Of a stretch of 64,000 nt of DNA, positions 13,602-61,314 are shown in pieces (positions within the stretch are counted from its first letter, which is position 1; the number at the start of each line of letters is the position of its first letter). The notes beneath the pieces were generated by a model. The model had not been told where the DNA came from, made no database searches, and was given only the letters and a program-made list of their open reading frames with translations. Source of the DNA: Clostridia bacterium (GTDB lineage Bacteria > Bacillota > Clostridia > UBA1381 > UMGS1253); assembly GCA_045636325.1 (NCBI GenBank), contig JAZTXH010000009.1, forward strand, positions 59,479 to 123,478. The letters are read 5' to 3'. The position numbers and the translations under genes were made by a program.

Positions 13602-13641
13602 TTTAAATCTAAGCCGTTAAATCGGCAGCAAGGAGAGTATT

Positions 13642-35081: not shown

Positions 35082-35963
35082 TCAAGCAATAGACTTTTCA
35101 CCATCAAATAAAAGTATTCCGTAAGCTATGCCAAAGCTTCCGCCCTGCAAAATCCATTTTTTAAACTTTCTTTGAAGTGATATATTTTCAAGCAAATCAT
35201 TTGCATCTTTTCCCCACTGATTACCAAAAACTCTCCAGCCGTCACAAAATTCATCCTGCTCAATTACTTTAATAATATCAAACATCTCAGCAAACTGCGT
35301 TGTATTTGAATTCTTTCCAAACACCTTTTTATACTCGGGGTACAAAATCCATGAATAGCACATTACAGGCAAAACACCGTTCTTTTTAACAAAAGGCTTA
35401 TGTTTATTAAATTCGTATGCACGCTTTAAACAATCCAATACGCTTTTCCTTGTAAGTTGTCCTGATGAAGGTATATGGCACTCTAGAACCATATCCCCCT
35501 TTTTTATGGTTATATCACATTTTTTATAATCATCAAATTCAAATTCTTTATAATCATACTGAAGTCTTCCGTGGGCAAAACGAGTCATGTCAAACCATCC
35601 GCCAAACCATTGTGCTGCAAATGTGCCGCACACATTATGAACTTTCCTGCATTCTGTAAGCTTATATTTTAAATCATACATAGACTCGATATATTTTTCT
35701 TCACTAAGGTCGGATTTTTTGTATCTGTCCCATGTCTTTTGTGCACATATAAGTGAAAACAGCATCCACACTGTATATTCATGAATACCTTTTAAATCAA
35801 GTGCTCTCACTTTTTCAAATGCAGCATTATATTCAATCTCACCTGCAAAATATTTTCTTGCTATTTTTTCAACTTCAATGCCTAAAACAACCTCAGCATT
35901 AAGGATGCACGCAATATCATCCTCCGGGAAAGATATTTTTTTCATTAATTCTGTGATTTCCAT
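35082..35963 (-). CDS. conserved hypothetical protein (possibly acyltransferase-like; family not recognised with confidence)
   Basis: ~293-aa ORF. ATG start with a GGGTGA SD. No diagnostic motif identified. Confidence 0.5.
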   Translation of the reverse strand: MEITELMKKISFPEDDIACILNAEVVLGIEVEKIARKYFAGEIEYNAAFEKVRALDLKGIHEYTVWMLFSLICAQKTWDRYKKSDLSEEKYIESMYDLKYKLTECRKVHNVCGTFAAQWFGGWFDMTRFAHGRLQYDYKEFEFDDYKKCDITIKKGDMVLECHIPSSGQLTRKSVLDCLKRAYEFNKHKPFVKKNGVLPVMCYSWILYPEYKKVFGKNSNTTQFAEMFDIIKVIEQDEFCDGWRVFGNQWGKDANDLLENISLQRKFKKWILQGGSFGIAYGILLFDGEKSIA

Positions 35964-35982
35964 AATCTTCACCCGCCTATAT

Positions 35983-36027: not shown

Positions 36028-39000
36028 TTAAAGCTCAACATATCCGTCAAACACTTTGACTGCCTCACCGGTCATAAATACATCCTCATCAGTATATTTT
36101 ATGTGAAGCTCACCGCCGCGAAGTTTAACCTTAATATCTTCGTTTTTGGGGCAATATCCATTTTCAACTGCCGCCACAACCGCCGCACATGCACCGGTTC
36201 CGCATGCCCATGTTTCGCCGTTGCCGCGCTCCCACACACGCATTCTTATGGATTTGTCATCCATAACACAAACAAACTCAACATTTACTCTTTCTGGAAA
36301 CAACTCGCAATTTTCAATTTCAGGACCAATTTTTTCAATGTCCATTTTTTCAATGTCATTACTGAATATAACGCAATGGGGATTTCCCATTGAAACGCAT
36401 GTAATATCGTAGTGTTTTCCTGCGATTTCTACACTGTGGCAAACAACTTTTTCTCCATCAATATTTACCGGAACATCTTCCGGCTTAACAGAAGCTTGAC
36501 CCATATCCACAGCTGCCATAAACACACTGTCATTCTTTAAAAACACCTTAAGTGTTTTTATGCCGCTCATTGTTTCTATCTTCATAACATCCTTTTTAAC
36601 AATGCCTTTATCATAAAGGAATTTTGCCACACAACGTATAGCATTGCCACCCATCTTGCCTTCGCTGCCGTCAACATTGAATATGCGCATTTTTGCATCT
36701 GCCGCATCGGAAGAATAAATAAGCACCACGCCGTCTGCACCCACAGAAAATCTTCTGTCACACAAACGAATAGCAAGTCCTTCAGGATTATCTATCTTTT
36801 GCTCCATACAGTTAATATAAATATAGTCATTACCACAGGTATGCATCTTTGTAAACTGAATCTTAAGCTTATCTTCACGCATACTGTTTATATCAACAAT
36901 CTCAGTTGTATGCTCCGAATAACGGCTCATCAGACTGTCTGCTATTGCATTGGCAGTATCAATAGAAGTAAGACACGGAATATTTCTTTCTACTGCCTTT
37001 CTTCTTATCTTAACACTGTCACGTGTGGGAATTCTTCCCTTTGTAGATGTTGAAATAACATAGCTTAGCTTACCACTTTCAATAAGCTCGAGAGTGTTAT
37101 TATCACCCTCATGAATTTTATTTACAACGCTTACTTCAAGACCTGCATCTCTTAAAACCTTTGCTGTTCCCCTTGTAGAGTAAAGCTCAAATCCCATATC
37201 AGAGAATTTCTTTGCTAGGTCAAATACTTCGCTTTTATCAGAATCACGAACAGTTATAAATACTCCGCCTGTTTTATTGAGTTTATATCCGCTTGCTGCA
37301 AGACCTTTATAAAGCGCCTCCTGAAGATTCTGAGCAACACCCAAAACCTCACCGGTAGATTTCATTTCAGGGCCTAACTGGTTATCCACATTAATAAGCT
37401 TTTCAAAACTGAATACAGGCACCTTAACCGCCACATAAGACGAAAGCTTATAAAGACCTGTTCCATAACCCATATCCTTAAGCTTTTCGCCAAGCATAGC
37501 ACGGGTAGCAAGGTCAACCATGGGAATTCCCGTTACCTTACTGATATAAGGAATTGTTCTTGATGCTCTGGGGTTAACCTCAATAACATAAAGCTCGTCA
37601 TCATATATAACATACTGAATGTTAACAAGCCCATAGGTTTTCATTTCGACCGCAAGGTTTTTAGTACATTCAATAATTCTGTCACGCATTTTGTCATCAA
37701 GATTAAATGCAGGATATACCGCAATTGAGTCTCCCGAGTGAACACCCGCGCGCTCAATATGCTCCATAATGCCGGGAATTAATATTTCTTCACCATCACA
37801 TATAGCGTCAACCTCAATTTCCGTACCCATAAGATATTTATCAATAAGCACCGGATTTTTAATGTTCTGTGCAAGAATAATTGACATATATTCTCTTACA
37901 TCTTCATCGGAAAATGCGATAATCATATTCTGTCCGCCAAGAACGTATGAAGGACGCAAAAGCACCGGATAACCAAGCTTATGAGCAACATCCAGCGCTT
38001 CACATGCCGCCATTACAGTGTAACCGCTGGGACGTTCAATATGAAGCTTTTCCAAAAGCGCATCAAAACGTTCTCTGTCTTCTGCCATATCAATACTGTC
38101 AGCAGATGTACCAAGAATGTTCATTCCTATTTCATCAAGATAATTTGTAAGTTTGATTGCAGTCTGACCGCCAAATGCTACAACAACTCCAAAAGGATTT
38201 TCTGTTTTTATAATATCTGTTACATCTTCTTTTGTAAGCGGCTCAAAATAGAGTCTATCTGATGTATCAAAGTCTGTTGAAACAGTCTCAGGGTTATTAT
38301 TTACTATAACAACATCATATCCAAGCTCTTTAAGTGCCCATACACAATGAACAGATGCATAGTCAAATTCTATACCCTGACCAATTCTTATAGGACCTGA
38401 ACCAAATACTATAATTGTCTTCTTTTTATCTTTTTTATTTTTCAAAAATTCTTCTGCTTCGTTTTCATCATCAAATGTTGAGTAGAAATACGGTGTCTGT
38501 GCTTCAAACTCAGCCGCACAAGTGTCAACCATTTTAAACACTGCGCTTCTCTTGTTTATAATCTTCTGACCTGAAAGTCTTTCAATAACACTATCCATAT
38601 ATCCAAGCTTCTTTGCTTCAATATAAAGCTCGTCTGTAAGCGTTTCACTTTCAAGACGCTTCTGCATATTAGAAAGATTCAAAAGCTTGTATAAGAACCA
38701 GTTATCAATTTTTGTTATATCATTTATTTCTTCACAGCTTACCCCACGATACAGCGCTTCATATACCATGAACAAACGAAGGTCATTACAATCATAAAGT
38801 GCTTCATGAAGTTCTTCATCTGTCTTTGATTTTGCACCCTTATAGCTTAAAGTATCAAGTGAAATTTCAGCGCCGCGAACAGCCTTCATCATTGCAGCTT
38901 CAAAATTATCAGCAATACTCATAACCTCACCGGTAGCTTTCATCTGTGTTCCAAGAGCACGCTTTGCATATACAAACTTATCAAATGGCCATTTGGGGAA

Positions 39001-40068
39001 TTTAACAACAACATAATCGATAGAAGGCTCAAAACAAGCATATGTTGTTCCCGTAACGGCATTTTTAATTTCGCTTAATTCATAACCGATAGCAATTTTT
39101 GCTGCAACCTTCGCAATCGGGTAACCTGTCGCCTTTGAAGCCAACGCTGATGAACGTGAAACTCTGGGGTTAACCTCAATAACTGCATATTCAAAGCTGT
39201 CAGGCTTTAGTGCAAACTGACAGTTACATCCGCCTTCAATTCCAAGCTCGTTAACAATTGCCAAAGCTGCACTTCTTAACATCTGATATTCTTTATCAGA
39301 AAGTGTAACTGCCGGTGCAACAACTATTGAGTCCCCTGTGTGCACACCAACAGGGTCAAAGTTTTCCATGCTGCAGACAGTAATTGCATTTCCCTTACTG
39401 TCACGGATAACTTCAAACTCTATTTCTTTCCAGCCAGAAATACATTTTTCAACCAATACCTGATGTATGGGCGAAAGGTCAAGCCCATTCTGGCAGATTT
39501 CTTTCATTTCTTCATCGTTATTTACAATACCGCCGCCAGTACCTCCAAGGGTAAATGCAGGTCTTATAATAACGGGATATTCAATCTCATGAGCAAAAGC
39601 CATACCGCTTTCCAAATCATTTACAACAGTTGACGGGATACACGGCTGATTAATTTTATCCATCATATCCTTAAACATCTGTCGGTCTTCAGCGCGGTCA
39701 ATTGTTTCAACTCGTGCACCCAAAAGTTTTACACCATGTTCTTCTAAAAAGCCTTCTTTTGCGAGTTTCATAGACATTGTAAGACCTGTCTGACCGCCAA
39801 GAGTTGACAAAAGGCTGTCAGGCTTCTCTTTTTCAATAATTCTTTTAAGTGTTGTAATATCAAGGGATTCAATATATATTTTATCCGCCATTTTATTATC
39901 TGTCATAATTGTTGCAGGATTTGAGTTTACCAAAACAACCTCAAGCCCATCTTCTTTTAAAGCACGACATGCCTGAGTTCCCGCATAGTCAAATTCAGCT
40001 GCCTGACCAATGACAATAGGTCCAGAGCCAATAACCATTACTTTCTTTATATCCTTATTAAGTGGCAT
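36028..40068 (-). CDS. carB: carbamoyl-phosphate synthase large subunit fused in frame to a DapF-like (diaminopimelate epimerase fold) domain
   Basis: 1346 aa. Residues 1 to ~1062 are canonical CarB (two ATP-grasp halves plus an MGS-like domain). The last ~284 aa carry DapF blocks FTKMHTCGNDYI, NVDGSEGKMGGNAIRC, SMGNPH and ERGNGETWACGTGACA. Confidence 0.9.
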   Translation of the reverse strand: MPLNKDIKKVMVIGSGPIVIGQAAEFDYAGTQACRALKEDGLEVVLVNSNPATIMTDNKMADKIYIESLDITTLKRIIEKEKPDSLLSTLGGQTGLTMSMKLAKEGFLEEHGVKLLGARVETIDRAEDRQMFKDMMDKINQPCIPSTVVNDLESGMAFAHEIEYPVIIRPAFTLGGTGGGIVNNDEEMKEICQNGLDLSPIHQVLVEKCISGWKEIEFEVIRDSKGNAITVCSMENFDPVGVHTGDSIVVAPAVTLSDKEYQMLRSAALAIVNELGIEGGCNCQFALKPDSFEYAVIEVNPRVSRSSALASKATGYPIAKVAAKIAIGYELSEIKNAVTGTTYACFEPSIDYVVVKFPKWPFDKFVYAKRALGTQMKATGEVMSIADNFEAAMMKAVRGAEISLDTLSYKGAKSKTDEELHEALYDCNDLRLFMVYEALYRGVSCEEINDITKIDNWFLYKLLNLSNMQKRLESETLTDELYIEAKKLGYMDSVIERLSGQKIINKRSAVFKMVDTCAAEFEAQTPYFYSTFDDENEAEEFLKNKKDKKKTIIVFGSGPIRIGQGIEFDYASVHCVWALKELGYDVVIVNNNPETVSTDFDTSDRLYFEPLTKEDVTDIIKTENPFGVVVAFGGQTAIKLTNYLDEIGMNILGTSADSIDMAEDRERFDALLEKLHIERPSGYTVMAACEALDVAHKLGYPVLLRPSYVLGGQNMIIAFSDEDVREYMSIILAQNIKNPVLIDKYLMGTEIEVDAICDGEEILIPGIMEHIERAGVHSGDSIAVYPAFNLDDKMRDRIIECTKNLAVEMKTYGLVNIQYVIYDDELYVIEVNPRASRTIPYISKVTGIPMVDLATRAMLGEKLKDMGYGTGLYKLSSYVAVKVPVFSFEKLINVDNQLGPEMKSTGEVLGVAQNLQEALYKGLAASGYKLNKTGGVFITVRDSDKSEVFDLAKKFSDMGFELYSTRGTAKVLRDAGLEVSVVNKIHEGDNNTLELIESGKLSYVISTSTKGRIPTRDSVKIRRKAVERNIPCLTSIDTANAIADSLMSRYSEHTTEIVDINSMREDKLKIQFTKMHTCGNDYIYINCMEQKIDNPEGLAIRLCDRRFSVGADGVVLIYSSDAADAKMRIFNVDGSEGKMGGNAIRCVAKFLYDKGIVKKDVMKIETMSGIKTLKVFLKNDSVFMAAVDMGQASVKPEDVPVNIDGEKVVCHSVEIAGKHYDITCVSMGNPHCVIFSNDIEKMDIEKIGPEIENCELFPERVNVEFVCVMDDKSIRMRVWERGNGETWACGTGACAAVVAAVENGYCPKNEDIKVKLRGGELHIKYTDEDVFMTGEAVKVFDGYVEL

Positions 40069-41153
40069 TATTCTGCTCCTCCTTCTACTATCATTTTAAC
40101 AAATTTATCAAATAAAAATTCTGTATCCAACGGACCTGCCGCACCTTCCGGATGGAATTCAACAGAAAATGCAGGTGCGTTAGTTAAGCTTATACCCTCA
40201 CAAGCGCCATCGTTTGCATTTTCAAAGCTTACTTTCACATTTTCAGGAAAACTTTCCGGAACAAGAGCATATCCGTGGCTCTGACATGTTATATATATTC
40301 TGCCTGTTTTAACATCCTTTGCAGGCTGATTTTCACCTCTGTGACCATACTTTAATTTCTCACTTTTTGCCCCCTGAGAAAGGCCTAAAAGCTGATGGCC
40401 CATACTTATACCGAACATAGGAATCTTTTCATCGCAAAGTTTTTTAACCTCTGCTATAATACTTTTGTTTTCGCCCGGGTCTCCGGGTCCTCCTGATAAA
40501 ACAACGCCGTCAGCCTTATATGACATAATAGCTTTCGCTGTTGTATCCGCCGGCACTCTTATAACAGTTACATCGCGTTTTAAAAGTTGACGGATAACTG
40601 CCTCTTTTGTGCCAAGGTCTAATAAAACTATCTTGCGTTTTTCCTTTTCAGCTCTGTAAATCTTTACTTCTTTACAAGTAACTTCGCTGACAGGATTTAC
40701 TATCTTATGGCTTTTTATTTCTTCAATCTCTTTTTCATTTATCTTGTCGGAATATGCAATTCTCCCGTTCATAACACCATATTCACGAACGATTTTAGTA
40801 AGTCGCCTCGTGTCTATATCGTAAAGTCCCGGAATTTTATTTTCCTTCAAGTATGAATCAATGTCACCTTCACATCTGAAATTAGATGGATGCTCGCACC
40901 AACTTTTAACAATATATGCACCAATATACGGTTTATCGCTTTCAAAATCCGAACTTATAACCCCGTAATTTCCAAGGCTTGGAAATGTCTGAGTGACAAT
41001 CTGACCGTAAAGGCTTGGGTCCGTAATTGTTTCAAGATATCCCGACATGGAAGTAGTAAAAACAACTTCACCAGTTACCTCTTTTTCATAACCAAAGCTT
41101 TTACCTTTGAAAACAGTTCCATTTTCAAGAATAAGATAAGCTTCTTTTGCCAT
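40068..41153 (-). CDS. carA: carbamoyl-phosphate synthase small subunit with Ser at the glutaminase nucleophile position
   Basis: 361 aa. The class I GATase block reads FGISMGHQLL where the family has GICLGHQ. The His/Glu of the triad is retained (EFHPE). TAATG overlap with carB. Confidence 0.9.
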   Translation of the reverse strand: MAKEAYLILENGTVFKGKSFGYEKEVTGEVVFTTSMSGYLETITDPSLYGQIVTQTFPSLGNYGVISSDFESDKPYIGAYIVKSWCEHPSNFRCEGDIDSYLKENKIPGLYDIDTRRLTKIVREYGVMNGRIAYSDKINEKEIEEIKSHKIVNPVSEVTCKEVKIYRAEKEKRKIVLLDLGTKEAVIRQLLKRDVTVIRVPADTTAKAIMSYKADGVVLSGGPGDPGENKSIIAEVKKLCDEKIPMFGISMGHQLLGLSQGAKSEKLKYGHRGENQPAKDVKTGRIYITCQSHGYALVPESFPENVKVSFENANDGACEGISLTNAPAFSVEFHPEGAAGPLDTEFLFDKFVKMIVEGGAE

Positions 41154-41293
41154 AATATATTTCCTCCTGTACGTAATTTATATATTTCACTTATATTTTT
41201 CCGCATTATTCGCCGTATTAATATTTTAGCCATACGGTATATGTATTTTTATAAACTTGATATATTTTTGTTTTTTATTGGCTTTATATACAC

Positions 41294-41326
41294 AAAGAGC
41301 AGAGTGAATACCATCCTCTGCTCTTT
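41294..41326 (-). other. stem-loop at the predicted 5' end of the carA transcript
   Basis: AAAGAGCAGAG-11 nt-CTCTGCTCTTT: perfect 11-bp arms starting a few nt downstream of the -10. Confidence 0.5.
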
Positions 41327-41327
41327 T

Positions 41328-41356
41328 ATTATACACTATTTCTAAAAAAATGTAAA
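41328..41356 (-). promoter_or_regulatory. sigma-A promoter of carA-carB::dapF
   Basis: Minus strand reads TTTACA (41351-41356), a 17-nt spacer, then TATAAT (41328-41333). Confidence 0.6.
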
Positions 41357-41367
41357 GCAATTTAACA
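41351..41367. promoter_or_regulatory. TnrA/GlnR-type box overlapping the carA -35
   Basis: TGTAA-AGCAATT-TAACA matches TGTNA-N7-TNACA at all fixed positions. Confidence 0.55.
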
Positions 41368-41464
41368 GGTCTTTTTTAATGTATAATAAAAGTTTTTTAA
41401 GTTGTTGTCATTTTGCACTTTTTTCAAAAGCATCAAATAAAAATACAATTGCACAATGACTAAA

Positions 41465-41728
41465 CTAAATACATATCCTGTAATAGATAATCGGATTTTT
41501 AAAAAATGCATCCGCTCTCTTTTGCTTTATTTCCATTTTTAAATCAAAAACACTGTCTTTCAAACCATTTCTAATCATATCTTTGCTTTTTATTTTTAAA
41601 ATAAAAGGTGAAAAATATTTAAAATCCGCACACACATAATAACATCCGTCAAATAATGCTGACATCTTATACTTCACAGCTGTTATTCCATTTTTAATTT
41701 TGCTGTTATAAAATTTTTCAGCAAGCAT
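41465..41728 (-). CDS. small hypothetical protein (87 aa)
   Basis: ATG preceded by GAAAGGAGA 8 nt upstream, plus a consensus promoter ~100 nt further upstream. No recognisable domain. Confidence 0.5.
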   Translation of the reverse strand: MLAEKFYNSKIKNGITAVKYKMSALFDGCYYVCADFKYFSPFILKIKSKDMIRNGLKDSVFDLKMEIKQKRADAFFKNPIIYYRICI

Positions 41729-41843
41729 AAAAAATCTCCTTTCAAAAAAAAACGCGAAATCCATACTTTTACATAAAAAAAGACATCCGGATACAATAAC
41801 CTAATGTCTGTGTATGCAAATTTTCATCACACATATTTATTAT

Positions 41844-41872
41844 AGTATATATTACACTAACATATTTGTCAA
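41844..41872 (-). promoter_or_regulatory. sigma-A promoter of the 87-aa ORF
   Basis: Minus strand reads TTGACA (41867-41872), a 17-nt spacer, then TATACT (41844-41849). Confidence 0.6.
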
Positions 41873-42139
41873 TAGCTTTATCCTAATTTTGGCGAAAAAA
41901 AGCAATTTTTAATAAGTTTTTTAAAATTTTTTATAGATTTTTTTATTCCTTGGAATTTGAATTCTTTTTAATTTTGTTTCTTAAATTATAAAATTATAAT
42001 TTATAACACACCTTAACATATTTTTTAATCAAGCTTGTCCCTCAAGCTTAATATAGCCAAGCTTTTACTTAATAAAATTAAGTTTACTGTGCTTTTTATT
42101 TGTTTTAAAAAGACATTTACTCACCTTTTTAAAAATCCG

Positions 42140-42168
42140 TTGACTTTTTATATGAATCCGTGTATACT
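42140..42168 (+). promoter_or_regulatory. sigma-A promoter of the type III glutamine synthetase gene
   Basis: TTGACT (42140-42145), a 17-nt spacer, then TATACT (42163-42168). Confidence 0.7.
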
Positions 42169-42192
42169 GTAAAATGTAAAATTGTTAAACGC

Positions 42193-42209
42193 TGTGATTG
42201 GTGTTCACA
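42193..42209. promoter_or_regulatory. TnrA/GlnR-type box in the glnN leader (also the stem of a terminator-like hairpin)
   Basis: TGTGA-TTGGTGT-TCACA is a perfect match to TGTNA-N7-TNACA. The extended 9-bp stem at 42189-42213 is followed by a T7 run ending at 42219, 25 nt before the ATG. Confidence 0.6.
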
Positions 42210-42244
42210 GTGTTTTTTTAATCATTTGAAAGGGGCATTGATAA

Positions 42245-44341
42245 ATGAAAAATATTCCCGATTTATTTGGCTCAATGGTTTTTAACACTCACGTTATGCG
42301 TGAGCGTCTGCCTAAATCAACATATGATGAGCTTCTCAAAGCGATAGATGAAGGTCTTCCTTTAGAGCCGGAAGTTGCAAACGTTGTTGCAAATGCAATG
42401 AAAGACTGGGCTATAGAAAAAGGTGTAACTCATTATACTCACTGGTTTCAGCCTATGACTGGTATTACTGCAGAAAAGCACGACAGCTTTATATCACCCT
42501 ATGGTGAAGATTCCGTTATAATGGAATTTTCCGGAAAAGAATTAATTAAAGGCGAGCCTGATGCATCAAGCTTTCCTTCCGGTGGTCTTCGTGCAACATT
42601 TGAAGCAAGAGGCTACACTGCATGGGACCCCACATCCTTTGCTTTTATAAAAGATAACACCCTTTGTATTCCCACTGCTTTTTGCTCATACACCGGCGAA
42701 GCACTTGACAAAAAGACTCCTCTTCTGCGTTCAATAGAGGTTATTGATAAGCAGGCAATGAGAATTCTGCGTCTTTTTGGAAATACAACCGCAAAAAAAG
42801 TTATTACAACCGTTGGTCCTGAGCAGGAATATTTCCTTATAGATAAAAAGCTTTATGATGAAAGAAAAGACCTTATTTATACCGGCAGAACTCTTTTCGG
42901 TGCTCCTGCACCAAAAGGTCAGCAGCTTGATGACCATTATTTCGGAACAATAAAACCTAGAGTTGCCGCGTATATGAAAGAGCTTGATGAGGAGCTCTGG
43001 AAGCTTGGTGTTCTGGCAAAAACAAAGCATAACGAGGCAGCTCCTGCACAGCATGAGCTTGCACCCATATTTGCTACAACAAATATTGCAACCGATCACA
43101 ATCAGCTTACAATGGAAATAATGAAAAGAGTTGCCACAAAACATGGTCTTGTATGTCTTCTTCATGAAAAACCGTTTCAGAGCGTAACCGGCAGTGGCAA
43201 GCACAATAACTGGTCACTTTCCACCGATACTGGCGAAAACCTTTTAAAACCCACAAGTAAGCCCCATGAAAACAAGCAATTTTTACTTTTCCTTTGCGCT
43301 GTTATCAAAGCAGTTTATGAACATCAAGATTTACTCAGAATTTCAATTGCCAGCGCAGGGAATGATCATCGTCTTGGTGCTGACGAGGCTCCGCCCGCTA
43401 TAGTTTCTATGTTTATAGGCGATGATTTGGAAGAAGTTTTGAATGCAATTGCAAACGATAAAGAATACATAAAGAACGCAACAAAATATATTGACAGCGG
43501 CACACATGCATTGCCAGATTTGAAAAAGGACACAACAGATCGTAACCGCACATCTCCATTTGCATTCACCGGAAACAAATTTGAGTTTCGTATGCTTGGC
43601 TCTTCTTTCTCTGTTGCCGCTCCCAATACAATTTTAAACACCATAGTTGCAAGTGTATTGGACGAATTTGCAACAGAGCTTGAATCAGCAAATGATTTTT
43701 CATCTGCGGTCGACGCCCTCATCAAGAAAACTGCAAAAAAATACAAAGATATTATTATTTTCAACGGCAACAACTATTCTGATGAATGGGTAAAAGAAGC
43801 TGAAAGACGCGGCCTTTACAACTTAAAAACTACTCCTGATGCAATTCCTCTTCTTACAAGCAAAAAGAATGTTGATTTGTTCACAAAATACGGTGTTTAT
43901 TCTGAAATTGAACTTCATTCAAGATGTGACATACTTTTGGAAAACTACTCAAAAATACTAAACATCGAAGCAAACACGATGCTTGAAATGGCCAAGAAAG
44001 ATATTCTGCCTGCAGTTATCAGCTTTACAAAAGAGCTTGCTGAAACATTAAATGCAAAAAAGACTCTTTCTTTAGATGTTTCATGCTTTGCAGAAGAAGA
44101 ACTTTTAAAGAGAGTTTCTCTTCTTTCTGAAAATCTCTACCGCAGAATCCAGACTCTTGAAAAAGCGGTTTCGGGCGCAAAAAATGTATCCGATACAGAA
44201 AAACTTGCCGTATATTATAAAGACAAAGTTCTTTCGGCAATGAATTACCTTCGCGAAAGCGCAGATACTTTAGAAACCATCGTTGGTGAAAAATACTGGC
44301 CATTCCCCTCTTACGGAAAGCTTTTGTTCTCAGTCAACTGA
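42245..44341 (+). CDS. glnN: glutamine synthetase type III
   Basis: 698 aa. GSIII-type N-terminus (FGSMVFN…[12 protein letters not shown]) and length. Confidence 0.9.
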
Positions 44342-46790: not shown

Positions 46791-47633
46791 TCATAAAGAC
46801 TCTGTCTGCCCTTTTATGTAATCAATAAGGAGCTCATGAACATTTACGTCTGTCAGCTCATAAAGCATTCTTGCTCCCACAACATCCTCAATTTCATTAA
46901 GCTTCATTTCATCACCATCAAATATAAAATCTATACCTGCATATGTAAAATCAAAGTAGCCTATAACCTTTTCAATAAGTTTTCTTTCATTTGGTGATAT
47001 ATTGTAAAGCTCTGCTTTGCCACCAAGTGAAAAATTACTTCGAAAGTCAATATCCGAGCTTCTTAGTATCCCTGCAAGGATTTTGTTTCCTAATACATAA
47101 ACCCTTAAATCTCTGCCTGTTGTGCCTGCAATTTTCTGCACAAGAAAACAATCTGTCCCGTAACTTTTTACTGCCGCTTCAAGCTCATATTTATTGTTTG
47201 CAATGAATACGCCCTCTCCGCCGTGGCCGTCAGCCGGCTTTACAACACAAGGATATCTTATATCTTCTGCATCATATGAAAAAAAACGTCTGTCAAAAAA
47301 AAGCGTGTCCATCATAGGAATACCTTTATCAGCAAGATAAAAATGAGTTTTCCTTTTATCGTTGCATACATTAGAAATAAACGAATTATTAAAAACTCTT
47401 ACTCCCGCTTTTTCAAAAAATTCACTTAAAAACGGGAAGATACTTCTGTTAATAACAAACTGCGGAAATCCCCCGTTTACTTTTAATCCATCTTTATTTA
47501 TTCCAAACACAATATCCTGTGCATATTTAAGTTTTAAATCAATTCCACACGTGTGCGCATATTCAATAAGAGTGTGAATAAACCAGCGGTTTTTCTCCGC
47601 TTCAACTTTTCCGTATATAATCCATCCGGTCAT
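46791..47633 (-). CDS. divergent RimK-type ATP-grasp ligase (paralogue 2)
   Basis: 280 aa. YPCVVKPADGHGGEGV ATP-grasp block. The C-terminal metal-ligand block reads DFIF…NEIED instead of D…E-x-N. Confidence 0.7.
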   Translation of the reverse strand: MTGWIIYGKVEAEKNRWFIHTLIEYAHTCGIDLKLKYAQDIVFGINKDGLKVNGGFPQFVINRSIFPFLSEFFEKAGVRVFNNSFISNVCNDKRKTHFYLADKGIPMMDTLFFDRRFFSYDAEDIRYPCVVKPADGHGGEGVFIANNKYELEAAVKSYGTDCFLVQKIAGTTGRDLRVYVLGNKILAGILRSSDIDFRSNFSLGGKAELYNISPNERKLIEKVIGYFDFTYAGIDFIFDGDEMKLNEIEDVVGARMLYELTDVNVHELLIDYIKGQTESL

Positions 47634-47637
47634 ATTA

Positions 47638-48498
47638 TCATAGCCTGTCTTTAATATATTTTATAATCTCTTCACTTAAATCAATACCAGTGCAATGAAG
47701 AGTGCTTTTAAAATGAGGATTTGAATTCACTTCGCATATAATGCTTTCACCGTTTTTACCAAAAAGCACATCCACTCCTGCAAATTCAAGGCCAACAGCC
47801 TCGCATGCCGCAATCGCAATCTGTTTTTGCTCAACCGTTGCTTCTTCAGCTTTCATTTTGCCACCGTTTGAAATATTAGAGCGAAAATCGCCGCTTGTAT
47901 TATAGCGCAGCATTGATGCCACTGCCCTGCCGCCAACAACATTAACTCTTATATCTCTCCCTTTGCTTTCTTCTATAAATTCCTGCATTATAAACTCTTT
48001 TGCGCCAATTTTTTCTGCAATTTCTTTTGCTTCTTCAAAATTATTTGCAAGATAAACCTGCTGACCGAAAGAGCCGTAGCTTTCTTTAATTACCATAGGA
48101 TATCCCAAATCATCCCCGGCTTTTTTTAAAAAACCAAGATTATTATATCCAAAGGTCTCAAAGGTTTTAGGTGCAATATATGTTTTTGGCACTTTTATAC
48201 CCTTTTTCGCAAGGTATATTGCGCTAAGACTTTTACTGTCAGATATTTCAATCGCCCTTGCACTGTTAAACACCCGCACTCCCATATCCTCAAGAAGCAT
48301 GGCAAGCTTTACATCCTTGTCCCAGAAAAGCACAAAATCAGGTAAATCAACTTTTTCGCCGACCGCAAAAAACACATCACATGTTTTTTTAAGTTCAAGA
48401 GTAATTCCATACCTTTTTGATGCATCTAAGAGATATGCATATATCTCATTAAACTTTTTAATTTCTATAAAACTGTTAACAATAAGCCATCCGGTCAT
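47638..48498 (-). CDS. RimK-type ATP-grasp alpha-L-glutamate-ligase-like protein (paralogue 1)
   Basis: 286 aa. YPMVIKESYGSFGQQV, RSNISNGG and GVDVLF…ICEVNSNP motifs. Confidence 0.75.
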   Translation of the reverse strand: MTGWLIVNSFIEIKKFNEIYAYLLDASKRYGITLELKKTCDVFFAVGEKVDLPDFVLFWDKDVKLAMLLEDMGVRVFNSARAIEISDSKSLSAIYLAKKGIKVPKTYIAPKTFETFGYNNLGFLKKAGDDLGYPMVIKESYGSFGQQVYLANNFEEAKEIAEKIGAKEFIMQEFIEESKGRDIRVNVVGGRAVASMLRYNTSGDFRSNISNGGKMKAEEATVEQKQIAIAACEAVGLEFAGVDVLFGKNGESIICEVNSNPHFKSTLHCTGIDLSEEIIKYIKDRL

Positions 48499-48540
48499 AA
48501 GTCATTCCCCTGTTTTTTATACGATTAAAATTCTCAAATA

Positions 48541-48569
48541 ATTTTATCACATTACACAATTTAAGTCAA
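48541..48569 (-). promoter_or_regulatory. sigma-A promoter of the ATP-grasp pair
   Basis: Minus strand reads TTGACT (48564-48569), a 17-nt spacer, then TGaTAAAAT (-10 at 48541-48546). Confidence 0.65.
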
Positions 48570-48581
48570 TAAAAAGCATTG

Positions 48582-50039
48582 TCAAATTTCATCAAAACAA
48601 ACACTTATTTCCTTTTTCATTCCATGTGAGCCAAACACCTGCCATCTACCCTCACCAAACCTTTGAAATATAGCTTTTCTTTCATCGCGGCAAAGCGCAG
48701 AATCAGTATCAACCGAATTCATAAGCTTCGGTGCATACTGATTGTATTTCTTCTGTTCAGGCGTCATATCCTTTAAATTAATATAAATATCTCCTGTAAA
48801 AGATATTCGGTTTTTATAATCTATCAAAACGGTTTCACCTTGCAGATGACCACCGCTGCACTCATATACTTCAAAGCAAAATTCTCCGAAATTAAAAAAG
48901 CCGATTTGCCACATTAATGCGTTTTCTTGTTTATCTTCCCATAAAAATTGCAACTTTTCAGGATTCGGTGGCTTATATTCCGTAAGTGCCTTGCATATTT
49001 TCACATAAGGCTTATGATATCTGTTTCGCTCTCTAAATCCGTTTTTCCCTTCGTATTCATTTTTTAAACATTCACCGGTTTTATAGCTCACAAAAATTTC
49101 ATCAAACATATAAGCAAGCCCACAATGGTCCACATCAGCATGGGTTAAAACAATTTGCTTTTTTATCTGCTCAAATCCCTGCACAAGCTCATTATAAATC
49201 TTCGTCATTTCCTCTTTATAATACGTATATCCGCAATCTATAAAAAGGTATTTATCTTCGCTTTTTATAATAGCAGTATTACTGCCGCAAGGCGGCTCAA
49301 TTAAAATTATTTCGCTTTTTTCGCCTGCTGCGTGATGTGTTATACGGGGCTTGAAAGCATCTTTTCTGCTATTTGCAAGCATGCTTGCAAACTTACTTAT
49401 ATTATCAAATGTTTTATAAGGCAGTCGCCCCTGCTCATCTAAAATCTGCATAGCAAGATTTGAATTTATCAAAATTTCTTGCTTTGCCTCAGGATTAATT
49501 TGCCCCGCTTTAATAAGACTGTCCGTAAATGAATTATAAAAAATACTGTTATCAAAAATCTTTTCGGCATGGTTATAGTCTATAATATTTACGGGGCAAA
49601 TCTGCTTGGCTTTCTTAATAAAATTCAAAAATACAGACTTATCTTCCGTTAAAACTCCTACTTTAAATGCCTGTGTTTTTTTATCTGCTGCCTGATAACT
49701 TATATATGAGATATTAAAGTTATAATTATAAATAAGCCTTGCAATCTCTTTAGCGCTGCCGGGCCTGTTTTCAAGTAAAAATTCTATTAAAAAAACCTCT
49801 GCTGTTTTATTATTTTTTTGAAAATATCCGTTTTTTGAAAGTATTTCATCCGCTTTTTCAAGCTTATCTTGCTTTCCCTCTACATCTATAAACAAGGTAT
49901 TGGTATCTACTGCTTTATTATAGCTTACCCTTGTTATATTCACTCCAAGTTTTGCAAAACATTCACTCGCCTTAAAAAAGGCACTTGCATCATCAGACAT
50001 ATTTGCAATGTACGTTTTTTTCAAGCCAACCGCTCCCAA
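48582..50039 (-). CDS. tandem ACT-like domains fused to an MBL-fold metallo-hydrolase
   Basis: 485 aa. Two ~70-aa beta-alpha-beta-beta-alpha-beta-like N-terminal modules, then the MBL motif LTHADVDHCG. Confidence 0.6.
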   Translation of the reverse strand: MGAVGLKKTYIANMSDDASAFFKASECFAKLGVNITRVSYNKAVDTNTLFIDVEGKQDKLEKADEILSKNGYFQKNNKTAEVFLIEFLLENRPGSAKEIARLIYNYNFNISYISYQAADKKTQAFKVGVLTEDKSVFLNFIKKAKQICPVNIIDYNHAEKIFDNSIFYNSFTDSLIKAGQINPEAKQEILINSNLAMQILDEQGRLPYKTFDNISKFASMLANSRKDAFKPRITHHAAGEKSEIILIEPPCGSNTAIIKSEDKYLFIDCGYTYYKEEMTKIYNELVQGFEQIKKQIVLTHADVDHCGLAYMFDEIFVSYKTGECLKNEYEGKNGFRERNRYHKPYVKICKALTEYKPPNPEKLQFLWEDKQENALMWQIGFFNFGEFCFEVYECSGGHLQGETVLIDYKNRISFTGDIYINLKDMTPEQKKYNQYAPKLMNSVDTDSALCRDERKAIFQRFGEGRWQVFGSHGMKKEISVCFDEI

Positions 50040-50684
50040 TTACACATTTAAAAACAGGTAAATACCTATAAGGTTTATGCCTAGATTCGCCCCTGCATGA
50101 AGAAAATATCCACCCCAGATATTACCGCATTTTTCATCGACATAGCAAAAACAAATTCCTCCCGCAAAAAGCCCTATCATACAAAGAATAAATATAAACG
50201 GATTAAACCAGCCCGAAAGCATTGTAACATGATAAAGGGCAAAAATTGCAGAAGATATTATATATGCCGCCTTTTTATTTTTCTCCTTTAACGAAAAGAA
50301 TATGTAACCGCGGAAAAACAATTCTTCTATAAACGCATTTATAAAAATTATATTTGTAAACACAAAAATAAAATTTGATTTTGTGATGCTTTGATTTTCA
50401 AGTGAGCCTAAAATCATATCCGGGTCAAACTGTGCTTTTAAAACATTATATCCGATTATAATAATCGCCGCAATTAAAAACGCACCAACTCCGCACATAA
50501 GCATTGATTTTTTACTTTTTGTTTTTACAAACACATTCTTAAAATTATGTCTTATCAATAAAGGTCCACCCACAAAAAGCAAAATTTTTACGATTGATGT
50601 AAAAAGATAGGTGTTATAAGGCGAAAGATGCAAGAGAGAATAAAGTGCAGGTATTAGTGCTCCGATTAAAAAAGTTTTTATCAT
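50040..50684 (-). CDS. CPBP family intramembrane glutamic endopeptidase
   Basis: Polytopic protein with EELFFRG and FALYH motifs. Confidence 0.75.
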   Translation of the reverse strand: MIKTFLIGALIPALYSLLHLSPYNTYLFTSIVKILLFVGGPLLIRHNFKNVFVKTKSKKSMLMCGVGAFLIAAIIIIGYNVLKAQFDPDMILGSLENQSITKSNFIFVFTNIIFINAFIEELFFRGYIFFSLKEKNKKAAYIISSAIFALYHVTMLSGWFNPFIFILCMIGLFAGGICFCYVDEKCGNIWGGYFLHAGANLGINLIGIYLFLNV

Positions 50685-51226
50685 AGGCTAGCACCCTTTT
50701 CTTCTTTTGCATAGTTAATTAGCGAAACAATTGCATTTTTATCCGTAAAATCACCGTCAGCATCACAAAGGTCAATTAACATTTTTTCCATTTCGCTGGG
50801 ATTTTTTTTATTCCGCATTATCAGCTTTAATGCCTTTATTGCATTCCTGTGCGGTATGGAAAGTTCAGAAAGAATCATTTTTCCAAGAAAATTAAATGTT
50901 TTTATATTTTCAGGCAAGCCGTTTTTAAAGTTTTTTTGGATAACCATTTTATTATAATATTCACTGCACTCAACAGGCGTAAGCCCCGTTGTAAAAATAA
51001 TAATTTTTTTATTTTTTAAAAGCTCAATATTTTTTGTAATAAGACTTATTCCTGCAATAACCTCAGCATAAAGCCCTCCGCCGTAAATAATGGTGTCGTA
51101 TTCTTCAAGGTCGTTTATCTTTACATTTTTTGCATCCTTTGCTTCACACTCAAGAGCCCCCGCAATCCATTCTGCATAAGCTTTTGTTGAGCCGTATTTT
51201 GATTTATATACCACAATTGCATTCAT
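50681..51226 (-). CDS. flavodoxin-domain protein (HemG-like fold)
   Basis: 181 aa. N-terminal IVVYKSKYGSTK flavodoxin-like motif. 4-nt overlap with the CPBP gene. Confidence 0.6.
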   Translation of the reverse strand: MNAIVVYKSKYGSTKAYAEWIAGALECEAKDAKNVKINDLEEYDTIIYGGGLYAEVIAGISLITKNIELLKNKKIIIFTTGLTPVECSEYYNKMVIQKNFKNGLPENIKTFNFLGKMILSELSIPHRNAIKALKLIMRNKKNPSEMEKMLIDLCDADGDFTDKNAIVSLINYAKEEKGASL

Positions 51227-54504: not shown

Positions 54505-55173
54505 TTATTTTCTTTTTACTATATTGTCCATACTTTTAACAATACAGCCTGCTGCAAAAACGCCCCTGAGTGAATTAAGAGGGTAAACAGTTGTGTTCTT
54601 TCCTATCACTGTTCCGGGATTAAGCACACATGAGCATCCAACATCTGCCCCGTCTGCCAATACACCGCCAATTTTTCTTATTCCGGTTTTATAATCAATA
54701 TCCCCATGAATAACAACCGGCTTGCCGTCAGCCTTAAGATTAGAACAAATAGACCCTGCACCCATATGAGCGTGATTGCCCAATATAGAATCTCCTATAT
54801 AATTATAATGCGGAACTTGCACTTTGTCAAGTAAAATACAATTTTTTAACTCCGATGAATTTCCGATAACACAATTTTCACCGGTTATGACACTGCCTCT
54901 TATGAATGCGCCCGGCCTCACTTCACAGTAATGACCTATAATCGTGGGTCCTTCAATTACTGCATTTGGATATATTTTTACATTTTTTCCGACCCATACG
55001 CCTTTTTCTATTTCGAAAAAACCGTCCAAACCATTTTCAATAAGATTTTCAATATACCCTTTTATCTTTTCTAACATCTGCCAGGGATATTCGCTTTTTT
55101 CAAAAAGCTCTTTTAAATAGGGTGTTCTACATTCAAAAAGCTCGTTTGTTTTAACCTGCTTATTCAACACCAT
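54505..55173 (-). CDS. left-handed beta-helix (hexapeptide) acyltransferase resembling the GlmU C-terminal domain
   Basis: ~222 aa. Hexapeptide repeats with HYNYIGDSILGNHAHMGAGSICSN, similar to GlmU LbH. No nucleotidyltransferase domain. Confidence 0.6.
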   Translation of the reverse strand: MVLNKQVKTNELFECRTPYLKELFEKSEYPWQMLEKIKGYIENLIENGLDGFFEIEKGVWVGKNVKIYPNAVIEGPTIIGHYCEVRPGAFIRGSVITGENCVIGNSSELKNCILLDKVQVPHYNYIGDSILGNHAHMGAGSICSNLKADGKPVVIHGDIDYKTGIRKIGGVLADGADVGCSCVLNPGTVIGKNTTVYPLNSLRGVFAAGCIVKSMDNIVKRK

Positions 55174-56782
55174 GTCCCCTTTCAATAATTTTGTCTGAAA
55201 CAATCTGTGCATATTCTATGCATTTATCTTTACTTTCACACTCAATCATAACTCTTATAACTGGCTCTGTTCCGCTTTGACGCAAAAGCACTCTTCCCTT
55301 TCCTCCAATAAGTTTTTCCACATAAGAAAGCTCTTCAATCACTGCATCATCCGTCATAACTGATTTCTTATCCTTAACGCGAATATTTTTCATATACTGC
55401 GGATACAATTTAACTGGCTCAGCAAGCTCTGACAAAGAACGTTTTCTATCACAAACTTCTTCAGTAAGCATTATAGCTGTAAGTATACCATCACCGGTGG
55501 TCGCATATTTTTTCAAAATTATATGCCCCGATTGTTCACCGCCAAGACAATAATCATTTTGTTGCATGCTCTCATACACAAATCTATCGCCAACATTTGT
55601 TTGTACACATTTTATGCCCTCTTCTTCAAGGCTGGAAAGCAGTCCGCTGTTTGTCATAACTGTTGCAACTATAGTATTGTGGTTAAGCACACCTCTGTTT
55701 TTTAAACGCTTACCTAAAATATAGAGCATTAAATCACCATCTACTACATTTCCGTTTTCATCAACTGCTATACATCTGTCAGCATCTCCATCGAAGGCAA
55801 AACCCATATCAAGGTGCTGTTCACGAACAAGCTTACAAAGATTTTCAATATGAGTTGAGCCACACCCTTCATTTACATTAAGTCCGTTAGGTTCGGCTCC
55901 AATTACAACAGTTTGTGCACCAAGCGCTCCAAATACCGCTTTTGCAATCATCCACGAAGCGCCGTTAGCACAGTCCAATCCAATTTTAAGCGATTTATAT
56001 GAATGTGACGCAATAGAAATCAAATAACCAAGATATCGGTTTCTGCCTGATGCATAGTCTACAATGCAACCAATTTTCTCTCTGCCTGCCAAAGGTAGGT
56101 CATCAGATACAACACCAAATGCCTTTAAATCACCATCAATATAGCTTTCTATAAGTGAAGTTGTAGAATCTTCAAGTTTTTCACCATAGCGGTTTATAAC
56201 CTTTATACCATTATCATAATATGGATTATGAGATGCAGTAATCATTATACCGCAATCAAACTCATCCTGACGGGTAACATAAGAAACACTTGGTGTTGTG
56301 GTAACATGCAGCATATATGCATCCGCACCTGATGCTGTAATTCCTGCAACAATGGAATATTCAAGCATATAACTTGACCTTCTTGTGTCTTTTCCTATAA
56401 CAATTCTTGGTCTGTATCCAGCCTTTGTGTTACCTGAAAGCGCAGAAGAATAATACCACCCCAGAAAACGACCAACCTTATATGCCTGCATAGATGTAAG
56501 CGTAAGGTTTGCCTCACCGCGAAAACCGTCAGTTCCAAAATACTTATTTGAGCCTAATTTCTTCTCAATCTTATGATTTATAGTAATTTTATCCTGTAAT
56601 AATTCGTCTGTTGAAATATCAAACAACTCACAAAGCTGTAAAACCTTATCAATCTGCGGAATTGCCTGATCCATTTCCCATTTTGAAACAGACTGTCTGG
56701 AAACTGAAATCCTTTCTGCCAATTGCTCCTGAGAAATATTAGCGGCGGTTCTAAGTTTTAAAATTTTTTCACCTATAGTCAT
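55160..56782 (-). CDS. glmM: XRE-type HTH domain fused to phosphoglucosamine mutase
   Basis: 540 aa. Residues 1 to ~65 are HTH_3 (LRTAANISQEQLAERISVSRQSVSKWE). The remainder is intact GlmM (TASHNP, FDGDADR, GGEQSGH, RQSGTEP). Confidence 0.85.
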   Translation of the reverse strand: MTIGEKILKLRTAANISQEQLAERISVSRQSVSKWEMDQAIPQIDKVLQLCELFDISTDELLQDKITINHKIEKKLGSNKYFGTDGFRGEANLTLTSMQAYKVGRFLGWYYSSALSGNTKAGYRPRIVIGKDTRRSSYMLEYSIVAGITASGADAYMLHVTTTPSVSYVTRQDEFDCGIMITASHNPYYDNGIKVINRYGEKLEDSTTSLIESYIDGDLKAFGVVSDDLPLAGREKIGCIVDYASGRNRYLGYLISIASHSYKSLKIGLDCANGASWMIAKAVFGALGAQTVVIGAEPNGLNVNEGCGSTHIENLCKLVREQHLDMGFAFDGDADRCIAVDENGNVVDGDLMLYILGKRLKNRGVLNHNTIVATVMTNSGLLSSLEEEGIKCVQTNVGDRFVYESMQQNDYCLGGEQSGHIILKKYATTGDGILTAIMLTEEVCDRKRSLSELAEPVKLYPQYMKNIRVKDKKSVMTDDAVIEELSYVEKLIGGKGRVLLRQSGTEPVIRVMIECESKDKCIEYAQIVSDKIIERGHGVE

Positions 56783-57135: not shown

Positions 57136-57897
57136 TCATACTTTTACAAGTTCTACCTTGCTTTCTTTTAAAACATTTTCCCAACTTTCGGAAATCGTCG
57201 CATCAGTTATAAGACATTCTATATCTTCAAACCTTGCAAGTTTAGCAAATCCAACTCTGCCAATCTTACTTTTGTCACATAAATAATACGCACTTTTGGA
57301 ATTTTTAAGCATACATTTTTTTATGCCGCACTCCTGCTCATTACTTTCAAGGATTCCCGTTTCTTCCATAATGCCTTTACTGGAAAAAAACATTTTATCA
57401 GCAAAATAATTTTTAGAAATATTATCTTCAGCCAATGTTCCTACAAGGCTCATATTGTGACTAGCAATTCCGCCAACAGCAATAAGCTTAATGTTTTCAC
57501 TACCGGCAAGCTCATTCACAACACGAATGGAATTTGTAATGACAGTAATATTTTTTATATTATTTATTTCCTTTGCCATATAAAAAGTAGTAGTAGACGC
57601 ATCAAGAAAAACTGTGTCACCAGGCAGTATGTATCCTGCTGCCACTGCAGCAAGCTTTTCCTTTGCATCAACATTCGTACGCTTTCTTTTTTCAAGCGAA
57701 AGCTCATATGCAGTTGCATCAATTGGAACAGCTCCGCCATGTGTTCGCATTAAACACTCTTGTTTTTCAAGTTTTTCAAGATCACGTCTTATTGTCTCTT
57801 CTGTAACTCCAAGCTCACTGCTTAATCGGCTTACCCATACTGCACCGTTATCAGCAAGCTTTTGAAGTATAATCTTCTGACGTTCAAGTGCAAACAT
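57136..57897 (-). CDS. DeoR/GlpR family transcriptional regulator
   Basis: N-terminal HTH_DeoR (ERQKIILQKL…VTEETIRRDLEKLE) plus a DeoR C-terminal sensor domain. Starts 11 nt after the pduL stop. Confidence 0.85.
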   Translation of the reverse strand: MFALERQKIILQKLADNGAVWVSRLSSELGVTEETIRRDLEKLEKQECLMRTHGGAVPIDATAYELSLEKRKRTNVDAKEKLAAVAAGYILPGDTVFLDASTTTFYMAKEINNIKNITVITNSIRVVNELAGSENIKLIAVGGIASHNMSLVGTLAEDNISKNYFADKMFFSSKGIMEETGILESNEQECGIKKCMLKNSKSAYYLCDKSKIGRVGFAKLARFEDIECLITDATISESWENVLKESKVELVKV

Positions 57898-57908
57898 ATA
57901 TCTGTCTC

Positions 57909-58583: not shown

Positions 58584-58600
58584 TTATTTCACCTCACAAA

Positions 58601-59248: not shown

Positions 59249-59265
59249 TTATAACACTCTCCGTA

Positions 59266-60693: not shown

Positions 60694-60748
60694 ATCACAT
60701 TGCTCCTGTCTTTAAAAATATCTATCACAAAAAACTTAATTTTCTACT

Positions 60749-61297: not shown

Positions 61298-61314
61298 ATT
61301 ATTCTCTCCTCCGC

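Follow-up and report, generated by a model that had tools for sequence, protein, structure and literature searches.

The window analysed here, a 64,000-nucleotide stretch of contig JAZTXH010000009.1 from a Clostridia bacterium, carries on its reverse strand a gene in which carB, for the large subunit of carbamoyl-phosphate synthetase (CPS), runs on in one open reading frame (ORF) into a sequence derived from dapF, the gene for diaminopimelate (DAP) epimerase. In the DapF-derived module, glycine stands where the first of the two catalytic cysteines is expected (Cys73 of Haemophilus influenzae DapF). We describe the gene and its active-site residues, the distribution of this substitution among related sequences, the genomic context of fused and free dapF, and the roles that the altered module might have. 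The coordinates of the gene, its parts and its neighbours are collected in Table 1.

Fusion gene and active-site residues

The encoded protein is identical to the NCBI-derived record P0121. Its CarB module matched NF003671 with 1497 bits (cutoff 599) and TIGR01369 with 1454 bits (cutoff 1027), and both ATP-grasp halves, the oligomerisation domain and the MGS-like domain were recognised with Pfam and equivalog models. Compared with the orthologous locus L083, the ratio of nonsynonymous to synonymous substitution rates (dN/dS) of this module was ~0.04. Upstream, carA adjoins the fusion, and its TAA shares one base with the ATG of carB (junction TAATG). The C-terminal module scored 295.8 bits against the DapF equivalog TIGR00652 (cutoff 114.65); it is a derivative of a genuine diaminopimelate epimerase, joined to CarB by translational fusion. 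The linker motif (T)ELVDINxMR was kept in all fusions of a linker alignment (n = 39). The window gene shows the features of a clade of fusions from Oscillospirales-type gut Clostridia, namely one ORF of ~1345 to 1355 amino acids and, in the window, the linker SEHTTEIVDINSMRED.

Table 1. Positions in the window of the fusion gene, its modules and diagnostic codons, and adjacent genes
Feature	Position	Strand	Remarks
N-acyltransferase (NAT_N + GNAT_C)	35082..35972	-	downstream of the fusion
CarB::DapF fusion, single ORF	36028..40068	-	1346 aa; stop codon 36028-36030
DapF-derived module, aa 1070-1346	36031..36861	-	two DAP_epimerase half-domains (PF01678, two stretches)
Cys1289 (TGC), second catalytic Cys (Cys217)	36202..36204	-	intact; block WACGTGACAA
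Asn1283 (AAC), column 211	36220..36222	-	ERG-S-GET to ERG-N-GET; domain-closure loop by E208/R209
Ala1143 (GCT), column of Gly76	36640..36642	-	C-G-N-G to G-G-N-A
Gly1140 (GGT), column of first catalytic Cys (Cys73)	36649..36651	-	flagged codon; acc on the plus strand
Thr1077 (ACC), column of Gly8	36838..36840	-	HGxGND loop; common to P0122
Linker	36862..36918	-	between MGS domain and DapF module; SEHTTEIVDINSMREDKLK
CarB module, aa 1-1050	36919..40068	-	full CPS large subunit including MGS-like allosteric domain
carA, glutamine-hydrolysing CPS small subunit	40068..41153	-	TIGR01368, 424 bits
Type III glutamine synthetase (GSIII_N)	42245-44341		divergent from carA

The original prediction, made from the DNA alone, placed glycine, encoded by ggt, at the first catalytic cysteine and described the second cysteine block as intact, and both readings were borne out. 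Gly1140, in the local sequence FNVDGSEGKM-G-GNAIRCVAK, fell on the Cys73 column, at the N-terminus of helix 2, in three independent alignments: a HMMER alignment with the solved Bacillus anthracis DapF 2OTN (DGSEGKMGGNAIRCVAK over DGSEGKSCGNGLRCVAK), a MAFFT alignment with DapF of H. influenzae, and one that comprised 200 homologues. The first catalytic cysteine of the DapF family is thus missing from the module. The DAP-binding residues N11, N64, G74, N75, N157, N190, E208, R209 and T219 are all present in the window protein, and they are present in all or nearly all relatives that lack Cys73 (hereafter non-Cys, as opposed to Cys-type). In Corynebacterium glutamicum DapF (CgDapF), N11, N64, G74/N75, N157, N190, E208, R209 and S/T219 are each essential, and the C83A mutant, altered at the position equivalent to Cys73, is almost inactive (PMC5296763). 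By analogy, this mutant backs the further expectation that a DapF with one cysteine should not epimerise.

No other cysteine consistently occupies the catalytic position in the alignments. Cys9 (HGCGND), Cys79 and the occasional Cys76 or Cys78 were considered as replacements and rejected, as none was consistently present in the non-Cys variants. Three Ser73 variants (P0144, P0147 and P0160), ~74 to 75% identical to the window protein, carry cysteine in place of the near-invariant Arg78 (KMSGNAICCVAK), and two Ala73 loci (L077 and L078) have cysteine at position 76 (AGNCIR). These variants may represent relocated thiols, although no consistent pattern was seen.

The codon GGT is one base from TGT, as might be expected of a sequencing or assembly error or of a private deleterious mutation in one strain. 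The comparison with relatives nevertheless excludes such an origin for practical purposes. Orthologue P0122 (locus L083), which is 87% identical over all 1346 residues and whose contig was found in two samples (ENA and NCBI), encodes the glycine with a different codon, GGC, and also has the Thr8, Ala76 and Asn211 of the window protein; in addition, there are many further non-Cys lineages. The next relative, P0123 (L084; 83% identical), has cysteine at this position (TGC). Between the window and L083, the proportion of synonymous differences (pS) was 0.65 to 0.75, that is, saturated, and that of nonsynonymous differences (pN) was 0.06 in CarB and 0.18 in the DapF module. Because pS is saturated and pN low, the glycine must be an old inheritance, and the module has evolved under purifying selection.

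Residues 930 to 1346 were modelled with AlphaFold2 from an alignment of 40 fusions (pTM 0.66). The MGS-like domain and the DapF module were predicted confidently (pLDDT ~90), and the linker had a pLDDT of 47 to 64. In a Foldseek search with the DapF part, the best match was the ligand-bound Anabaena DapF 9MRO (TM 0.92, rmsd 1.8 Å), the top 26 matches were all DapF or its close homologue DcsC, and the fold matches also included 6R76, 4K7G and 6D13. The predicted DapF fold is intact. No fixed arrangement of the two domains was predicted for the monomer, and the model speaks neither for nor against tight allosteric coupling between CarB and the DapF module.

Loss of Cys73 among fused modules

Protein-database labels of "stand-alone" proved unreliable, as P0049, P0001 and P0250 turned out to be fusions that are either broken or given an internal start; fusion status for the main test was therefore scored on DNA loci only. 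A scan of GTDB species representatives gave 80 such loci, none with a DapF module closer than 62% to that of the window. All 33 stand-alone dapF genes encoded cysteine at position 73, whereas the 47 CarB::DapF fusions comprised 20 with cysteine and 27 without (16 Ala, 10 Gly and 1 Ser; Fisher p = 7e-9, without phylogenetic correction). The best 120 matches to the full-length protein in a 5.8-billion-protein collection were all fusions of 1345 to 1355 aa, at least 73% identical, and held 100 Cys, 11 Gly, 5 Ser and 4 Ala in this column. Among 158 full-length fusions, the column held 116 C, 20 G, 16 A and 6 S. Only G, A or S ever replaced the cysteine in this set, and Cys217 was kept in every member.

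The history of the column was followed on a neighbour-joining tree of the 158 fusions, computed with p-distance-derived distances from the CarB part only. The Cys73 column required 19 Fitch changes, 15 of them between Cys and non-Cys, and the median DapF column 13. On the same tree, Cys217, N64, N157 and R209 changed not once, and N190 and E208 once each. The ~15 independent switches between Cys and non-Cys are themselves a phylogenetic count, unlike the Fisher tests.

An exhaustive HMMER search was also evaluated through 150 representatives of 50%-identity clusters, of which eight lacked Cys73. Four of these had a CarB-side extension, P0250 starts inside the linker, and two were fragments, which leaves P0384 (Ser73) as the sole clearly stand-alone protein without Cys73 in the sample. 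Two other stand-alone representatives, P0291 and P0357, have serine at Cys217 plus other pocket changes.

Judged from these sequences, the loss of Cys73 is a recurrent and nearly fusion-restricted pattern rather than a private oddity of the window gene. Cys73 has been freed from constraint in the fused form, and essentially only there, with the remaining active site still constrained. A search of the accessible literature found no account of a CarB::DapF fusion or of a natural DapF without Cys73. One further cluster representative, P0254 (512 aa), consists of an ornithine-carbamoyltransferase (OTC)-like N-terminus followed by the end of the CarB MGS domain, the linker and a DapF module with Gly73 and Asp11; such a protein would reflect either a large deletion inside the gene or chimeric assembly.

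The Cys-less module is not decaying. Every non-Cys lineage sampled retains the polar residues of the pocket, truncation of the C-terminal DapF domain was seen in none of them, and the Ala73 clade keeps the domain across many species. For close pairs (CarB distance 0.02 to 0.10), the ratio of DapF to CarB amino-acid distance was 2.7 to 2.8 in non-Cys versus 1.9 to 2.0 in Cys-type fusions, and it was 3.9 for the window versus P0122; after Cys loss, the DapF module accelerated 1.4- to 2-fold. An acceleration this modest would fit the loss of one selected property, catalysis, and the retention of another. The combination expected of a pseudoenzyme, loss of an essential catalytic residue with continued selection, was found here (Cys73 lost, pN 0.18 at saturated pS, pocket invariant).

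Positions 8, 76 and 211 were the columns that differed most between Cys-type and non-Cys fusions. Glycine occupied position 8 in 96% of Cys-type versus 60% of non-Cys fusions, the others having S, T or A. At position 76, three residues past the cysteine on the same helix, the corresponding figures were 78% and 7%, glycine giving way to Ala or Ser. Position 211, in a loop that closes onto the N-terminal domain upon substrate binding (PMC5296763), was serine in 96% of Cys-type versus 17% of non-Cys fusions, the latter having mostly Asn, Thr or Ile (Fisher p = 9e-23, without phylogenetic correction). The substitutions at these three positions cluster around the lost thiol and may occupy or re-line the cavity that it leaves. 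Asp is frequent at N11 in the Ala clade.

Genomic context of fused and free dapF

The gene for LL-DAP aminotransferase, dapL (TIGR03542, 523 bits), was detected beside dapF with tblastn in 25 loci. All were Cys-type, 17 of them stand-alone and 8 fused, whereas the 27 non-Cys loci had none. Among fused loci with 3.5 kb or more of sequence downstream, scoring by ORF cluster found dapL in 7 of 16 Cys-type versus 0 of 16 non-Cys loci (p = 0.007). In Cys-type loci, dapF, whether free or fused, is often followed by pyrG and dapL or by dapL directly, and it is often preceded by glnA, an ANTAR regulator and carA (e.g., L084). Because many Cys-type fusions lie directly upstream of (pyrG-)dapL, as stand-alone dapF does, the fusion seems to have arisen by the joining of operon neighbours and to have been bifunctional at first, as it mostly still is. 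The fused module is the positional counterpart of an ordinary dapF, and fusion as such is therefore no evidence of regulatory design. The suggestion in the original prediction that the fusion is more likely regulatory than bifunctional is thus unsupported or overstated, given this gene order, the two cysteines kept by most fusions and the low-confidence linker of the AlphaFold2 model. The glycine itself tells little about the reason for the fusion, as 116 of 158 full-length fusions retain both cysteines. Loss of Cys73 accompanies loss of the physical link to the LL-DAP-making enzyme, the only substrate source that makes an epimerase necessary.

More broadly, dapF (free or fused), pyrG (CTP synthase) and dapL are conserved neighbours in many loci (L001-L079; e.g., L041, 6001-9900), which places pyrimidine-nucleotide and DAP cell-wall-precursor genes in one cluster in Oscillospirales-type Clostridia. 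In three loci from Ligaoa and Butyricicoccus-like organisms (L024, L061 and L071), carA leads directly into a stand-alone dapF, and carB lies neither between the two genes nor within 6 kb. Their gene order is glnA, ANTAR regulator, carA, dapF, and then pyrG-dapL in at least L061. This arrangement suggests an ancestral carA-carB-dapF-pyrG-dapL operon from which carB moved away in the lineage of these three loci.

Downstream of non-Cys fusions, no conserved partner gene was found. The genes, which were identified by eye, vary between lineages and include those for a PFL-like enzyme, ClpA, a UTP-glucose-1-phosphate uridylyltransferase-like protein, NAD synthetase and thymidylate synthase. In the Ala clade the arrangement is argD, an OTC-like gene, carA and carB::dapF. 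The carbamoyltransferase encoded upstream of carA in this clade (L060, L063, L064, L050, L053 and others; ~770-1700) scored 207 bits versus an OTC cutoff of 306, and may be a diverged transcarbamoylase.

In the window itself, the order is carA, carB::dapF and the N-acyltransferase gene, which may belong to the same operon as the fusion. Homologues of this NAT_N + GNAT_C protein, encoded as tandem pairs, also follow two separately derived Gly-type fusions (L014, 4041-5918; L028, 6908-8800). A tblastn search of the 64 kb found no second dapF, no dapL and no ddh, the Ddh query being approximate and hence a rough probe. Between carA and the divergent glutamine synthetase gene lies a 1.1-kb gap (41154-42244) without an ORF of at least 150 aa. 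No Rfam match to a riboswitch or leader was found upstream of carA, and there was no Rfam match anywhere in the window, not even to a tRNA.

Several other features of the window were noted. Subunits DpaA and DpaB of dipicolinate synthase are encoded at 12744-14220; the organism is probably a spore former and must keep at least the upper DAP pathway (DapA product). A bacterial microcompartment cluster at 57136-62646 comprises genes for a DeoR regulator, a phosphate propanoyltransferase (PTAC), two tandem-BMC shell proteins, an aldehyde dehydrogenase and an RnfC/Nuo51-like flavoprotein. At 46791-51226, two adjacent RimK-family ATP-grasp ligases are followed by a 485-aa ACT plus metallo-beta-lactamase-fold protein, a CPBP intramembrane protease and a flavodoxin-like protein, an assembly that may be a peptide-modification cassette. 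The remaining features are a radical-SAM and TIGR03915 pair (TIGR03916/TIGR03915; 31109-33174), annotated as a putative DNA modification or repair system; a composite ORF that fuses IspH (LytB) to S1 RNA-binding domains (6656-8635); and an HTH_3 domain in frame with phosphoglucomutase (55160-56782), which may be an over-extended ORF call.

Roles of the Cys-less module and comparison with known systems

The confinement to fusions, the conserved pocket, the modestly faster evolution and the absence of dapL are best explained if the module is an epimerase-crippled one that still binds DAP and is kept for a non-epimerase role specific to the fusion, a reading toward which we lean tentatively, at a little below an even chance. 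Such a module would no longer run two-base LL/meso-DAP epimerisation at a useful rate but would retain DAP binding, and selection would maintain it for a function confined to the fused protein. Most plausibly, this function would be ligand-dependent (open/closed) modulation or scaffolding of CPS. It would arise in lineages without a DapL-to-DapF route encoded alongside, where meso-DAP would presumably be supplied in another way. The reading accommodates the restriction to fusions because a useless stand-alone gene would simply be lost. Where the original prediction offered a pseudoenzyme, a binding role or altered chemistry, a retained non-epimerase role is a fair inference, because the rest of the pocket is strongly constrained.

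Several points weigh against a retained DAP-binding role. Pure binding gives no obvious reason why Cys217 was never lost among 158 fusions when Cys73 was lost about 15 times, and ~73% of the fusions (116 of 158) keep both cysteines. The AlphaFold2 monomer has a low-confidence, flexible linker and no confident interdomain packing. The association statistics ignore shared ancestry, and the trees are neighbour-joining. More specific, and in our judgment unlikely as it stands, is the proposal that in a clade of gut Clostridia the fused DapF has turned into a DAP-sensing domain of CPS that couples pyrimidine and arginine precursor supply to the cell-wall precursor pool, the one-sided losses of Cys73 then being independent enzyme-to-sensor transitions at different stages.

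Because the loss of Cys73 is one-sided, two enzymatic explanations stay alive. The module might be a working but slower epimerase in which Cys217 serves the D-face and the L-face proton is handled by a substitute (Thr/Ser8, Ser73/76, Asp11, Asn211, or water that they hold). Consistent with this, neither Cys217 nor any substrate-binding residue varies, the replacements at position 73 are all small (G, A, S), and the co-substitutions often bring a hydroxyl, carboxyl or amide close to the site (T8 in the window protein, N211, and, in the Ala clade, S76 and D11); natural Cys-Thr and Ser-Cys types also exist in the related proline-racemase superfamily (PMC3958920). Moreover, the fused dapF may be the only dapF of its genome, because it occupies the place that stand-alone dapF has in sister lineages. 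Against a slower epimerase stand the near-inactivity of the Cys-to-Ala mutant at this position (PMC5296763), the existence of variants with no new polar group at positions 8, 11, 76 or 211 (G8/N11/G73/A76/S211; e.g., P0132 and P0206), the 1.4- to 2-fold faster evolution of the module after Cys loss, and the fact that dapL is never adjacent to non-Cys fusions. We regard a slower epimerase as doubtful. Alternatively, Cys217 alone might act on the D-centre of meso-DAP or a close analogue by exchange, elimination or isomerisation. Such one-base chemistry would agree with the asymmetry among the 158 fusions, always at Cys73 and never at Cys217, and it has a parallel in the Cys-Thr 3-hydroxyproline dehydratases that arose from Cys-Cys epimerases on a homologous fold (PMC3958920; 6R76 and 4K7G are among the fold matches). 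The residues that recognise the distal L-centre and both DAP carboxylates are, however, unchanged, so the ligand should still be DAP-like, and DAP is without a beta leaving group; nor does any conserved partner gene hint at a new pathway, the downstream genes varying by lineage. We consider this chemistry improbable.

The module might also be a functionless relic, the epimerase being unneeded and the domain persisting only since a misfolding C-terminus would harm the essential CarB. Position 73 changes about as readily as an average column, non-Cys pairs show a moderately higher DapF/CarB rate ratio (3.9 in the window pair), and the tether is predicted to be flexible, all of which a relic could explain. 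It would be harder to reconcile with the polar, non-structural residues N64, N75, N157, N190, E208, R209 and Cys217, which are essentially invariant over ~15 independent non-Cys lineages, with a pN of 0.18 at saturated pS, or with the lack of truncation in the non-Cys lineages sampled, though one stop codon in the linker would remove the module. Overall, we rank the fusion-specific non-epimerase role first and a slower epimerase next; the relic, disfavoured by the invariant polar pocket, has a rather poor chance, one-base chemistry a similarly small or slightly smaller one, and sequence error virtually none.

If the fusion-specific non-epimerase role is correct, the fusions would offer ~15 natural replicates of a transition in which an essential epimerase loses one catalytic base yet keeps its ligand pocket, and does so essentially only after fusion to another enzyme. 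They would then be a tractable system for how pseudoenzymes and sensor domains arise from enzymes, and would bear on what makes the two "symmetric" cysteines in cofactor-independent racemases unequal. DAP could also be an unrecognised input into CPS control in abundant gut anaerobes. Annotation pipelines call these proteins "carbamoyl-phosphate synthase large subunit", "diaminopimelate epimerase" or "Multifunctional fusion protein", and for roughly a quarter to half of the fusions, a metabolic reconstruction that assigns them DapF activity may be in error.

Among known systems, the canonical DapF enzymes of H. influenzae (2GKE/1BWZ), B. anthracis (2OTN), Anabaena (9MRO) and C. glutamicum (5M47) are orthologous to the module by descent and have its fold, DAP-binding residues and second cysteine in common. 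The module differs from them in the glycine at the first cysteine, in the changes at positions 8, 76 and 211, and in forming the C-terminal end of a 1346-aa CarB protein, where canonical DapF is a free enzyme of 280 aa. Closer still is the Cys-type fusion of [Clostridium] leptum DSM 753 (P0239; "Multifunctional fusion protein" in UniRef), which is 73% identical and resembles the window protein in architecture, length and linker. Unlike the window protein, Cys-type fusions keep CGNG and both cysteines, and those from GTDB often lie beside pyrG-dapL; they are presumably true bifunctional enzymes.

The same position has been altered by design in CgDapF C83A, H. influenzae C73S (PDB 2Q9H) and E. 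coli C73A/C217A, with a normal fold. Those mutants are artificial and inactive, whereas the change in the window is natural and recurrent, comes with co-substitutions, and stands in a module kept by selection. The E. coli double mutant, although catalytically dead, still binds and activates RppH (PMC4227774). The DapF-RppH complex is thus a precedent for a non-catalytic DapF, in which the fold regulates another protein independently of epimerase activity (PMC4227774; 6D13 is among the fold matches). It differs from the fusion in its partner, in being a non-covalent complex, and in that the E. coli protein is also a normal epimerase.

A natural replacement of one cysteine with a change of function is known from the proline-racemase superfamily, whose homologous two-lobed fold carries one catalytic residue per lobe. 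Its active-site types are the Cys-Cys epimerases, the Cys-Thr trans-3-hydroxy-L-proline dehydratase and a Ser-Cys type of unknown function (PMC3958920). These proteins are 13 to 17% identical, and their one-cysteine types are old, separate subfamilies with new substrates, whereas modules of the window type represent repeated, recent losses inside an orthologous group in which the substrate pocket has been kept.

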